NCBI GenBank assembly: GCA_951406725.2 | Contig: OX597819.1 | Span: forward strand, 806,001-870,000 | Direction of reading: 5' to 3' | From: Octopus vulgaris | Lineage: Eukaryota | DNA: 64,000 nt | Shown: positions 10,367 through 54,711 of the stretch, one piece after another | Numbering within the stretch: position 1 is the stretch's first letter | Layout of the letters: every line of letters starts with the position of its first letter | Notes under the pieces: generated by a model | What the model saw: only the letters and a program-made list of their open reading frames with translations | The model's database searches: none | Told to the model about the DNA's origin: nothing | Position numbers and translations under genes: made by a program

Positions 10367-10414
10367 AATTAAATCATCACTGATTGTGACTGACGGTGCT
10401 GGGTAGCACTTATA

Positions 10415-11662
10415 TTGTTAGAAATAAGAGTTAAAAGGGCTATTAGAGAAAAGAGACAGGCTTGGAAGGACTGGAAGAATGGTGGTAGCAGGGAATTGTA
10501 TCAGACTGCCAAAAGGGAAGCTAGGAGACAGGTCTATTTAGCCAGAGGGGAAGCGGATAAGAAAAAATTTGCCAATGTTCTGCGCCGTGAGGACCAAAGA
10601 CTTGAGGTGTTTCGTGTTGCAAGACAGTGTGTGAGAGAGAATCGTGATGTGGTAGGAGAGAAGTGTGTTTGCATGGAAGATGGTTCACTTGCGCTAAATG
10701 AGGATGCAAAGAGAGAGGTTTGGAGACGCCACTATGAAAGGTTGCTGAATAAAGAAAATGAATGGGATAAAGAGAGTCTGCCGAATGTTGACCCAACAGA
10801 GGGACCAGCTATCCAAGTTGACAGTTCCTTGGTAGTTAAGGCAATTAGAAGCATGAAGACAGGGAAAGCCCCAGGCCCATCAGGAATCACTGCAGAGATG
10901 CTCAAAATATCTGGTAGTGTCGGCTATAGCCTAGTCACCCGTATAGTTAATCAGGTGATACACGAAGGAGTCATACCCAATGACTGGTGTAGCAGCATAA
11001 TAGTCAACTGCTACAAAGGTAAAGGTAACGCTTTAGATACAAATAATTACAGAGGTATCAAGCTGTTGGATCAGGTAATGAAGGTTACGGAGAGGGTCAT
11101 AACCCAACTAATTAGAGAGAGAGTTAGTTTAGATGAGATGCAGTTTGGGTTCGTGCTAGGGAAAAGTACTACTGATGCTATATTCCTGGTAAGGCAGCTG
11201 CAGGAGAAATACCTAGCCAAAGATAAGCCCCTGTACCTGGCTTTTGTTGACATGGAGAAAGACTTTGACAGGGTCCCCCGATCCCTTATCTGGTGGTCAA
11301 TGAGGAAACTAGGGATAGATGAATGGTTAATGAGAGCTGTGCGAGCCATGTACAGGGATGCCGCTAGTAAGGTGAGGGTTGGCAATGAGTACAGTGAAGA
11401 ATTCCGGGTAGAGGTAGGGGTCCACCAAGGCTCAGTCCTCAGCCCCCTCCTATTTATCATAGTCCTCCAGGCAATAACGGAGGAATTCAAGACAGGATGC
11501 CCCTGGGAGCTCCTCTATGCTGATGATCCTGCTCTAATTGCTGAGTCACTATCAGAACTGGAGGAGAAGTTTCAGGTGTGGAAGCAAGGATTAGAATCGA
11601 AGGGCCTTAGAGTCAATCTAGCTAAAACCAAAGTCCTAATAATCACAAACGCCTTCAGGTAG
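10415..11662 (+). pseudogene. Non-LTR reverse transcriptase ORF (RTE); no endonuclease domain; frameshift near 11640
   Basis: KAPGPSGI, NYRGIKLL, QFGF, FVDMEKDFDRVPR, GVHQGSVLSPLLF and YADD motifs. Confidence 0.93.
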
Positions 11663-42327: not shown

Positions 42328-42484
42328 TACACTCGTGGAGTGGTTGGTGTTAGGAAGGGCATCCAGCTGTAGAAACACTGCCAGATCAGACTGGAGCCTG
42401 GTGCAGCCCCTGGCTTCCCAGACCCCGGTCGAACCGTCCAACCCGTGCTAGCGCAGAAAACGGACGTTAAACGATGATGATGAT
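42328..42484 (+). mobile_element. Young RTE 3' tail copy
   Basis: Close match to 12748-12908, ending in (GAT)n; another at 40002-40098. Confidence 0.8.
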
Positions 42485-42488
42485 ATAT

Positions 42489-43062
42489 AGTGGTTGTATA
42501 CTGTCAACTTAACGTGACAGTCCTGTATGGGAATTACACCACCACTGTTTAGCCCTAGGAAGCATCGAACGCTTCCTGTTGGCTTTGACACATTTTTTTC
42601 CCCAGTGTCCTTATATTTGTGAAGGGGAGGCAAGCATCCCCACCAGCCAAGATTCACACCTGAGGACATGCATGTTTCTGGGTCTTAACCCGTCATCAGC
42701 CCAGGATAGTGAGATCTGCTGATTGAGGAGCCTGTCCAGCATTCACAAACATATATATTTACAGTGAAATCTATTCACTGATCACCATAATAAGAAATAT
42801 TAAATTTCTAAATGTCTCAAAGAGACATGAGCGGTGGTGGAGCGATAGAGTGGTTGTATACTGTCAACTTAACGTGACAGTCCCGTAAAGGGAATTACAC
42901 CACCGCTGTTTAGCCCTAGGAAGCATCGAACGCTTCCTGTCGGCTTTGACACATTTTCTGTGTCCTTATATTTGTGAAGGGGAGGCAAGCACTCCCAGCA
43001 GCCAAGATTCACACCTGAGGACATGCATGTCTTAACCTGTCATCAGCCCAGGATAGTGAGAT
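42489..43062 (-). mobile_element. Retrozyme-like element: 1.6 tandem copies of a 355-360 nt non-coding unit
   Basis: 42489-42715 is repeated at 42849-43062; each copy has the hammerhead, and the right one has lost its GAAA. Confidence 0.8.
42659..42705 (-). ncRNA. Type I hammerhead ribozyme, canonical core
   Basis: CCTGGG-CTGATGA-C.GGGT(TAAG)ACCC.A-GAAAC-ATGCAT-GTC-CTCAGG; stem I extends (TCAC/GTGA, AGAT/ATCT, CAGC/GCTG). Confidence 0.85.
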
Positions 43063-43064
43063 AT

Positions 43065-44147
43065 ACGTTAATGCTCTTTCATCTATCAGGTAGTTTTGCA
43101 AGGCTCCTCTTCCAAAATTCACTTGATCATGACACTACTGTTCTGACCTCGTCTACAGAATTCATATTTTTTCCGTCCAAATGATTTTGAAGACTGAAAT
43201 AAATGGTAATCAGACGGGGGTAATGACCAGTGAATACAGTGGATGGGGTATCACTTCCCATTCAAACTACTCCGGCCTTTGGAATGTCATCCTCGCTGTA
43301 TGTGGCTGAGCATTATCCGGATGGAAAAACACCCTTTGTCATGAAACCAAAGATTTTTCTTCTGGTGCTGACTTAAGCCGCTCAGGCTGCTCATGGTAGA
43401 TCTCCTTTGTTAATGTTTGGTTTGGGTTTAAAAGTTCAAAGTGGACTAAACCTTTCATATCCCACCAAACATATAACAACACCTTGCTTAGGTGAAAACC
43501 TTCTTTAGCCTGGGGTACCAGTGTTTCTCCTTTCTTCGGGGCTTGACATTTTTATAGAGAACCCATTTCTCGTCACCATCTGTGAGATGTGACAGCAAAG
43601 AAGAGCACACATTCATTCTCTGTATGCAATTAGACTCAGAAAGTTTGTGAGGAATCTATTGGCCCAATTTGCTGACTTTTCTGATGGCCCGCAGGTGTCT
43701 ATGAATGGTTGAATAACCAAATCCAAGCTTCTCTACGAGATCCTAGACAGTTACAATGGGATTTTGTTCCATCAGGGTTTGCAGGATGTACTTTTCAAGC
43801 TCTATAGATTTTCCAGGATGAGGCTCATCTTCTAGGCTGTAGTTTCCAGCTCTGTCCAATCCCCATATACTGCATCAATATTCCTCGCACTTACAATTGC
43901 ATTGTTACCTTTGTTGAACTCATGAAGCAAAATATGTTGAATATGCTCCTTTGTCACTTCCATTATAGCTTTGAAAAAGTAACTATTAAAATTGAACTGC
44001 ACTCTTCAAAACTTGCACTAAGAATAAGTACAAGGTAAAAATTAGTACCTGCTTTTATAGCAAGTTGATGCAGGTAGTTTATCCCATCCCCCTCCAACTT
44101 TTAGTTTATGCATTGAAAAAACGCATTATTTATGGGATGACCCAATA
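43065..44147 (-). mobile_element. Decayed mariner, same family as 31470-32481
   Basis: Same TIR CGCATTATTTATGGGATGACCCAATA at 44122-44147; GDEKWV and FHPDNAQPH read on the minus strand. Confidence 0.85.
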
Positions 44148-53440: not shown

Positions 53441-53799
53441 TGTGCCTTTTTAATCATCACCATGGGGATAATTAAAACAATTATTATTTGAAAGATAATG
53501 CTGACATGTGATTATATATCATCCTCATCAGTTATCATCCACTTTCAACTGGATGAATACCATAGATCACCATTTCATTATTTCTTGTGCAGTCAATATG
53601 CATTCATAATATCTTAGGTCTGTGCAATTCTTCATATTATCAATGCATATATTTTGTAGTTTTTCTCTTCCACTTTTATTTTGCTACATATTACAGTCTC
53701 CATGAAGCATGTTTTCCTAATTAAGTATCCCAAATATTCTTTTCTATTCTATGTATATATATACATATATATGTATGTATGTATGTATGTATATATATG

Positions 53800-53848
<49 letters not shown>

Positions 53849-53852
<4 letters not shown>

Positions 53853-54606
53853 CATAAGGGACTAAAGCCATCTGAATATGGCTAGGGACAGGGCAGGGTG
53901 GTGGGGGTGTTACTGTTGCATTTAGCCCCAGGCGAACATCGACGTCACCAGAAAGGCCCGAGACCGTCACGGTGTCCTTAACCTGCAAAGGGAGGTAATT
54001 CCCCGATGAAGCGGAAACCACACACGGACCATGGTTTCAAGGTGTATTGCCTATCGTCGGCGTGTGGTAGGCTTCCGCTTCCTCGACGAACTCTCACTCT
54101 GCAGGATATTCATATATAGATTTTCAAGCAAAATACATTTGCTGATTTCGAAAATCTGTTCGAAAGCAATAATAATTCTCTAAAAGAGATATAGACAGTA
54201 ACTGCTCGATAACATAAGGGACTAAAGCCATTTAGAGAATTATTATTGCTTTCGAACAGATTTTCGAAATCAGCAAATGTATTTTGCTTGAAAATCTATA
54301 TATGAATATCCTGCAGAGTGAGAGTTCGTCGAGGAAGCGGAAGCCTACCACACGCCGACGATAGGCAATACACCTTGAAACCATGGTCCGTGTGTGGTTT
54401 CCGCTTCATCGGGGAATTACCTCCCTTTGCAGGTTAAGGACACCGTGACGGTGTCGGGCCTTTCTGGTGACGTCGATGTTCGCCTGGGGCTAAATGCAAC
54501 AGTAACACCCCCACCACCCTGCCCTGTCCCTAGCCATATTCAGATGGCTTTAGTCCCTTATGTTATCGAGCAGTTACTGTCTATATCTTTTAGAGAATTA
54601 TTATTG

Positions 54607-54608
<2 letters not shown>
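53849..54608. mobile_element. Young retrozyme-like insertion: two inverted, differently permuted, terminally redundant 360-nt units
   Basis: Arms 53849-54184 / 54231-54566 (336 bp, one mismatch seen); 23-nt redundancy at 53849/54209 and 20-nt redundancy at 54231/54589; (TA)n on both sides. Confidence 0.88.
54330..54411 (+). ncRNA. Type I hammerhead with U4C core (mirror copy on the minus strand at about 54004-54085)
   Basis: GAAGCGGAAGCC-TAC-CACACG-CCGACGA-T.AGG(CAATACA)CCT.T-GAAAC-CATG-GTC-CGTGTG-T-GGTTTCCGCTTC. Confidence 0.8.
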
Positions 54609-54695
<87 letters not shown>

Positions 54696-54711
54696 TATAT
54701 ATGTATATCAC

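Follow-up and report, generated by a model that had tools for sequence, protein, structure and literature searches.

The window analysed here is a stretch of 64,000 nucleotides from Octopus vulgaris (assembly GCA_951406725.2, contig OX597819.1, positions 806,001 to 870,000), a species whose 2.8 Gb genome is rich in microsatellites. At positions 53849-54608 the repeat structure of the window reveals an insert flanked on both sides by a (TA)n microsatellite. The insert contains two inverted arms of 336 nt each (53849-54184 and 54231-54566) and two direct repeats, one of 23 nt at 53849 and 54209 with a spacing of 360 nt and one of 20 nt at 54231 and 54589 with a spacing of 358 nt. These repeats bear out the original prediction that the left copy returns to its start after 360 nt and that the inverted right copy regains its own start after 358 nt; the spacing is 358 instead of 360 because of a 2-nt deletion in the right arm.

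The segment 53849-54208 (360 nt) serves as reference unit M, and all M positions are counted on it. M1-360 followed by M1-23 makes up the left arm. The right arm is M317-360 plus M1-336 in inverse orientation and differs from M by one substitution and the 2-nt deletion. The observed/expected ratio of CpG is 0.91 in the insert versus 0.27 for the window, and the description of the arms as nearly identical and CpG-rich therefore holds. A scan of the insert gave no open reading frame (ORF) of 150 amino acids. A target-site duplication is unreadable because the target is itself (TA)n. The features are as follows, where PLE stands for Penelope-like element.

53750..53848, no strand: (TA)n-rich microsatellite that forms the left half of the target; the arm's first 3 nt can be assigned to either
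53849..54231, minus strand: left arm, 1.06 units (M1-360 + M1-23); its outer end is the tail-less start site M1
53866..53881, minus strand: hairpin a short way in from the tail-less start site, retained in sister families B and D through compensatory changes; candidate component of a putative protein-recognition signal
54021..54066, minus strand: type I hammerhead motif in the left arm, with the cut predicted between 54027 and 54026
54165..54208, minus strand: internal copy of the 44-nt tail (M317-360), which reads through into the next unit
54231..54231, no strand: inversion junction of two variable 5' ends, M23 and M336, with a 1-nt overlap
54231..54608, plus strand: right arm, 1.05 units (M336 down to M1, then M360 down to M317); its outer end is the tailed start site M317
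54349..54394, plus strand: type I hammerhead motif in the right arm, with the cut predicted between 54388 and 54389
54567..54608, plus strand: terminal PLE-type tail, at this end only; 44 nt in the family, 42 nt here through the 2-nt deletion
54609..54708, no strand: (TA)n-rich microsatellite, right half of the target

Elsewhere the window holds very long trinucleotide arrays (15400-16610 and 17485-19842, about 400 and 790 copies), LINE-type reverse transcriptase (RT) frames (10394-12416 and 19845-21523) and, on the minus strand at 42475-43065, a 1.6-unit tandem hammerhead repeat that resembles family D, has a canonical core and begins beside a short AT run.

The hammerhead motif

The circularised unit was searched with a hammerhead descriptor that allowed one change in the core, and 100 shuffled sequences served as control. 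One type I hammerhead was found on the minus polarity of M, and none on the plus polarity or in the 100 shuffles. The motif consists of a 6-bp stem I, the core CCGACGA, a stem II with a U-U first pair, GAAA, a palindromic stem III and a GUC cut site. A hammerhead had been predicted on both strands, which is right for the window because the arms are inverted, but the unit itself carries it in one polarity only. In the left arm the RNA would therefore read as the minus strand and in the right arm as the plus strand, so that its 3' sides would face outward at both ends of the insert.

Across about 250 units the core is almost invariant: free variation is confined to position 7 (128 C, 122 U), and 248 of 249 units have U4C. 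The motif is collinear with the canonical CUGAUGA hammerheads of sister families B and D, which differ in their stem III palindromes. The U4C change is reported to lower hammerhead activity in vitro and yet to allow viroid infectivity (PMC3088659). The minimum-energy fold of the isolated motif is not a monomeric hammerhead; dimer-type hammerheads are described in PMC4209133. Self-cleavage of the family M transcript is predicted from the motif.

Several other readings of the unit were discarded. A CCGAUGA...GAAA look-alike in the plus polarity fails the descriptor, and twister, HDV-like, pistol, hatchet and hairpin ribozymes were dropped on comparison by eye with their consensus structures. Rfam gave nothing at the gathering score within the window and, at E<=10 between 53700 and 54750, no ribozyme family, only miRNA-type hairpin matches below threshold. 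An ambisense viroid-like circle, which carries a ribozyme in both polarities, was also rejected because the hammerhead occurs in one polarity only and Rfam added no other ribozyme.

Family M and its outer ends

The insert is one of several hundred young dispersed copies of a 360-nt non-coding repeat, here called family M. A genome search with M returned 817 candidates, and full-length matches with 98-100% identity were present among the 40 that were scored. Copies are dispersed over hundreds of loci, with tandem arms of up to 14.7 units, and the longest insert has arms of 14.7 and 8.4 units. Searches gave 2591 candidates for sister family B and 2581 for sister family D. Both families are older than M, collinear with it over the whole unit and likewise without ORFs. 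Several hairpins, one of them beside M1, show compensatory changes between the families, in a comparison that covers three families and involves no formal covariation test.

The ends of the copies are highly regular. Genome-wide, 438 ends at M317 and 526 ends at M1 abut (TA)n exactly, and controls with the reversed patterns gave 0 for both. The two sites are 44 nt apart. Facing ends within 10 kb on contigs C1 and C2 (68 and 84 ends) formed 45 pairs, and all 45 were mixed with one end at M317 and the other at M1. When 50 loci were mapped on the circular unit the outer ends were fixed and the inner ends scattered; an apparent fixed end at M50 proved to be a search artefact. In the first sample, which is biased by score, 23 of 25 distinct inverted loci have one arm starting near M317 and the other near M1, and the exceptions end at M1 and M15 (L015) and at M333 and M358 (L006).

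The same rule appears from either side. An inverted partner accompanies 29 of the first 30 tailed ends on C1. The partner's outer end was reached in 28 cases and fell at M1-15 in 27, at M82 in one and never at M317. The first 30 tail-less ends on C1, a set that overlaps with the former, include 24 with a partner ending at M317-340, five that are single and one unresolved. Loci anchored by pattern are flanked by TA at one end through their selection, whereas the 50 mapped loci were selected by score and are free of this; the (TA)n or AT-rich target typical of PLE derivatives is found in score-selected loci too. The insertions show a further trait of such derivatives, an inverted arm truncated at its 5' side together with a tail confined to one end.

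Start points plotted over many genomic copies thus give a divided answer to the original prediction of two permuted monomers. The geometry is as described, but throughout the family the outer ends keep to M317 and M1 and are not scattered by chance, an outcome named beforehand as one that would speak against scattered starts. A simple linear element is nevertheless a poor description, since the inner ends vary and arms cross unit junctions. The redundancy of about 20 nt, read as a mark of the mechanism, merely shows where each arm stopped in this copy.

Inverted structures of this kind may also arise as assembly or library artefacts, since palindromes are prone to fold-back chimeras, and none of the contigs listed for four public runs spans the inversion junction in the window. 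Those contigs show no empty (TA)n allele at the insert either, and both observations are explained by microsatellites that break the contigs. An artefact is nevertheless extremely unlikely because the two arms differ by a substitution, a 2-nt deletion and their ends, and because dozens of loci have the same asymmetric ends with different junctions. The inversion is accordingly regarded as genuine. Part of the stretch is present in 20 public runs from 11 studies, none of them listed as RNA. Contigs of 390-391 nt that wrap the unit junction come from runs guessed to be RNA, and a circle and a tandem repeat look alike in such contigs.

Arm lengths and the RNA template

The inversion was originally explained by a strand switch. 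In this form one reverse transcriptase would enter a circle at an arbitrary point and switch strand once, either by fold-back or in the manner of L1 twin priming. Twin priming in L1 yields an inverted 5' segment through priming from the second strand; there the second start has no set position and lies beside the point at which the first cDNA ended. Family M shares the inverted segment, which would likewise be primed from a second strand, but its second start is fixed at M1 whatever the length of the first arm, and both arms copy the same region.

Arm lengths were compared in 28 unselected insertions with hand-entered extents, after L210 (no partner) and L218 (incomplete) had been dropped. The tail-less arm that starts at M1 was longer in ten, the tailed arm in nine, and the arms were equal within 30 nt in nine. 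Since folding back can yield no copy longer than the template, two priming events are required for most insertions. A single switch does agree with the shared haplotype of the two arms, with the nine near-symmetric insertions and with the many inversion junctions that lie inside the M109-131 hairpin (where the common variants 110T and 131A form a new pair). With both outer ends fixed family-wide and the tail-less arm longer in ten insertions it is contradicted for most copies and very unlikely as a general account, although it could apply to the symmetric subset.

The two arms thus probably represent cDNAs that were primed separately and then joined through their variable 5' ends. They are not independent in length: the class with equal arms holds nine insertions against 2.7 expected (p=0.0003), which indicates that both arms stop near the same point of the template, and the lengths of paired arms correlate (rho 0.44, p=0.02). 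The near-symmetric arms suggest either a shared linear RNA end reached by both enzymes or fold-back in that subset.

The same measurements bear on the form of the template. Arms longer than one unit make up 46% of 56, and 64% extend past the predicted cut site. True arm ends number about five at M177 and one at M178 among 19 pattern matches, where about three per position are expected from some 960 ends, so that the predicted cut site is not enriched and cut linear monomers are not the usual template. A recent reverse-transcribed insertion from a template with a head-to-tail junction, either a circle or a multimer, had been proposed for the window and is supported.

Sequence variation was studied in 232 units of at least 300 nt, out of 394 pieces from 75 loci. 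Units diverge by 0.27% within arms and 0.25% across arms (about 0.26% per insertion) versus 1.9% between loci, and most insertions carry one haplotype common to both arms. About ten haplotypes are each present in all or nearly all units of an array of at least three units, as in L265, where a single haplotype with 12 changes occupies essentially all units. Haplotypes common to whole arrays imply repeated steps from monomer to multimer, by rolling circle or by repeated template jumps. The low divergence within insertions fits rolling-circle copying without proving it. Differences at common sites were seen in 17 of 52 multi-unit loci, many of them single changes. A pure single circle is opposed by the mosaic of haplotypes in L049 (10.8 units), by variant 21C>G in single units at three loci and by a complex variant in three of 16 units in L266. 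The cut site without enrichment of arm ends and the U4C change leave cleavage, and with it the formation of circles, a prediction. A circular monomer is given slightly better than an even chance as the template, and a linear multimer, with or without template jumps, comes a little short of that.

Arrays could also have grown at the DNA level after insertion of short arms, through unequal exchange, slippage or conversion, in which case no multimeric or circular RNA would be needed. Scattered units of one array that share variants, as in L266 and L049, have a conversion-like appearance. Against such growth stand the high proportion of arms above one unit in very young copies, the arms of 1.05 units that already cross the unit junction, as in the window, and the occurrence of the same haplotype in both arms. 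This origin of the arrays is very unlikely.

Relation to Penelope-like elements and retrozymes

The units of family M are short and without ORFs, each with a type I hammerhead, and they form dispersed tandem multimers, as in non-LTR retrozymes. Animal non-LTR retrozymes are known as circular RNAs in coral, mussel and axolotl, and PLEs have been proposed to mobilise them (Cervera and de la Pena 2020, PMC7229834). A PLE origin of retrozymes has been argued from co-occurrence and similarity of terminal repeats (Li et al. preprint 10.64898/2026.07.22.740005). As described in these two sources they resemble M in a non-coding unit of 150-450 nt (350-390 nt in mussel), GC content under 50%, one type I hammerhead per unit with a palindromic stem III, tandem copies and co-occurrence with PLEs. 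The axolotl motif HHR_Amex2 and family M have in common a U-U pair where stem II begins. Family M differs in that most insertions are inverted, with two fixed start sites of PLE type and a fixed U4C core variant, and whereas circular RNA has been observed for known retrozymes, M is known here from genomic sequence. The word "inverted" is absent from the main text of PMC7229834, and in the preprint it appears only in the title of a reference, with no "tail". We found no description in the literature of inverted retrozyme insertions with PLE tails or of the one-of-each count, though supplements may hold examples. The main text of the Octopus vulgaris repeat annotation (PMC13282606), in the sections consulted, makes no mention of hammerhead, ribozyme or retrozyme.

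PLEs often have an inverted 5'-truncated copy, a 30-40-bp tail at one end only and a bias for (TA)n (Craig 2021 PMC8557442; Arkhipova 2013 PMC3846280). A PLE protein has been reported in vitro to nick and extend both strands, to start reverse transcription at two adjacent internal sites whose gap corresponds to the tail, and to prefer uncleaved RNA (Frangieh 2024 PMC11167929). Endonuclease-positive PLEs and family M thus have in common the inverted truncated arm, the tail at one end, the two start sites, the targeting of (TA)n and a hammerhead upstream of the start sites. In contrast to these PLEs, M has no ORF, a 360-nt unit repeated up to 14.7 times per arm and a tail of 44 nt. In the in vitro assays of Frangieh et al. 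the start site did not differ between the strands; insertions of M, by contrast, almost always have one site per end. Non-autonomous PLEs in Chlamys such as MRC1 (PMC8557442) are, like M, PLE derivatives with multicopy head-to-tail insertions. They generally share 3' sequence with an autonomous family, a match that was not found for M in 80 loci, and Chlamys elements are mostly without hammerheads according to the same paper.

The end structure and the hammerhead type of the insert are also those of a PLE terminus, and it could be no more than a truncated pLTR, the terminal repeat of an autonomous PLE. However, among all arms mapped, those longer than 360 nt always continue into the next unit and never into an ORF, and an ORF with RT and GIY-YIG domains, which marks an autonomous PLE, is found in no arm. 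PLE ORFs near some loci belong to separate insertions, with (TA)n in between at the junctions inspected, and two older sister families have the same ORF-less unit. A terminal repeat of this kind is highly unlikely.

Young PLEs with RT and GIY-YIG domains do exist in this genome, where 150 of 6136 GIY-YIG candidates were scored. A family with a 781-aa protein (L061-L074, L080) has an intact RT and GIY-YIG frame, an upstream 479-aa frame in full-length copies and a degenerate hammerhead-like motif; its copies end in (TA)n, where a 33-nt tail may be present or absent. The asymmetry of family M recurs in inverted PLE copies at L066, L075 and L236, where one end is tailed and the other tail-less, and L068 and L080 have one tailed end and a second end left unclassified by the script. 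A second young family (L075:2812-5992, also L236 and L244) adjoins M insertions in two of 60 pattern-anchored loci. Its hammerhead has U4C and a U-U first pair, as in family M, and this family is a possible partner of M, with ends that have no sequence match. At L118:870-1725 (C10 near 61.41 Mb) an internal PLE RT fragment is fused directly to a family B multimer within one (TA)n-flanked insertion, probably through a template switch.

A profile of families M, B and D matched no PLE end in 80 loci around PLE matches, comprising about six PLE families. No 3'-end match came from the 781-aa family, the L075 family, the family of the L118 RT fragment or two Naiad-like families, and the family D copy that lies beside a Naiad-like fragment in L133 was inserted separately. 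The inner flanks of 18 single-arm loci are common repeats or unique DNA, with no PLE end among the matches listed.

The Naiad-like families (L185-L203) have open frames of 900-960 aa, and in the L190-L200 group a CUGAAGA...GAAA hammerhead-like motif can be seen by eye in the 3' UTR. Canonical hammerheads have been reported to be missing from Naiads. A further hammerhead repeat lies at L185:7932-8330; its core is UUGAAAA and it contains a near-perfect internal palindrome.

Taken as a whole, the insert is most probably a young copy of a non-LTR retrozyme whose arms start at two fixed sites and which was likely inserted in trans by a PLE enzyme. In the proposed course of events, the PLE protein would nick both strands of a (TA)n tract, and the two freed 3' ends would serve as primers, with reverse transcription starting at M317 from one and at M1 from the other. 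Both cDNAs would copy the same RNA, or RNA of the same source, going round a circular monomer or along an uncleaved multimer, and would stop at variable points before repair joined them end to end. More tentatively, a dimeric Penelope-type enzyme may carry out double target-primed reverse transcription on one small circular RNA, with its subunits starting from two fixed sites that are 44 nt apart and not equivalent, each on its own nicked strand, and both rolling round the circle in parallel.

Family M is a new, young retrozyme family, and its value lies in the integration footprint rather than in a new class of element. The earlier case for PLEs as mobilisers of animal retrozymes was built on shared hammerheads, co-occurrence and similarity of terminal repeats, whereas family M carries the footprint itself. 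Hundreds of near-identical copies without protein-coding capacity allow a count of end pairs that full-length PLEs rarely permit, and the rule of one end of each kind constrains models of PLE integration. The 360-nt unit is also a minimal substrate for the study in vitro of start-site choice and rolling-circle copying. If the dimeric enzyme should prove true, the family would be a genome-wide record of rolling-circle integration of a retrozyme, and the tail at one end of PLEs would be explained as an obligatory asymmetry.
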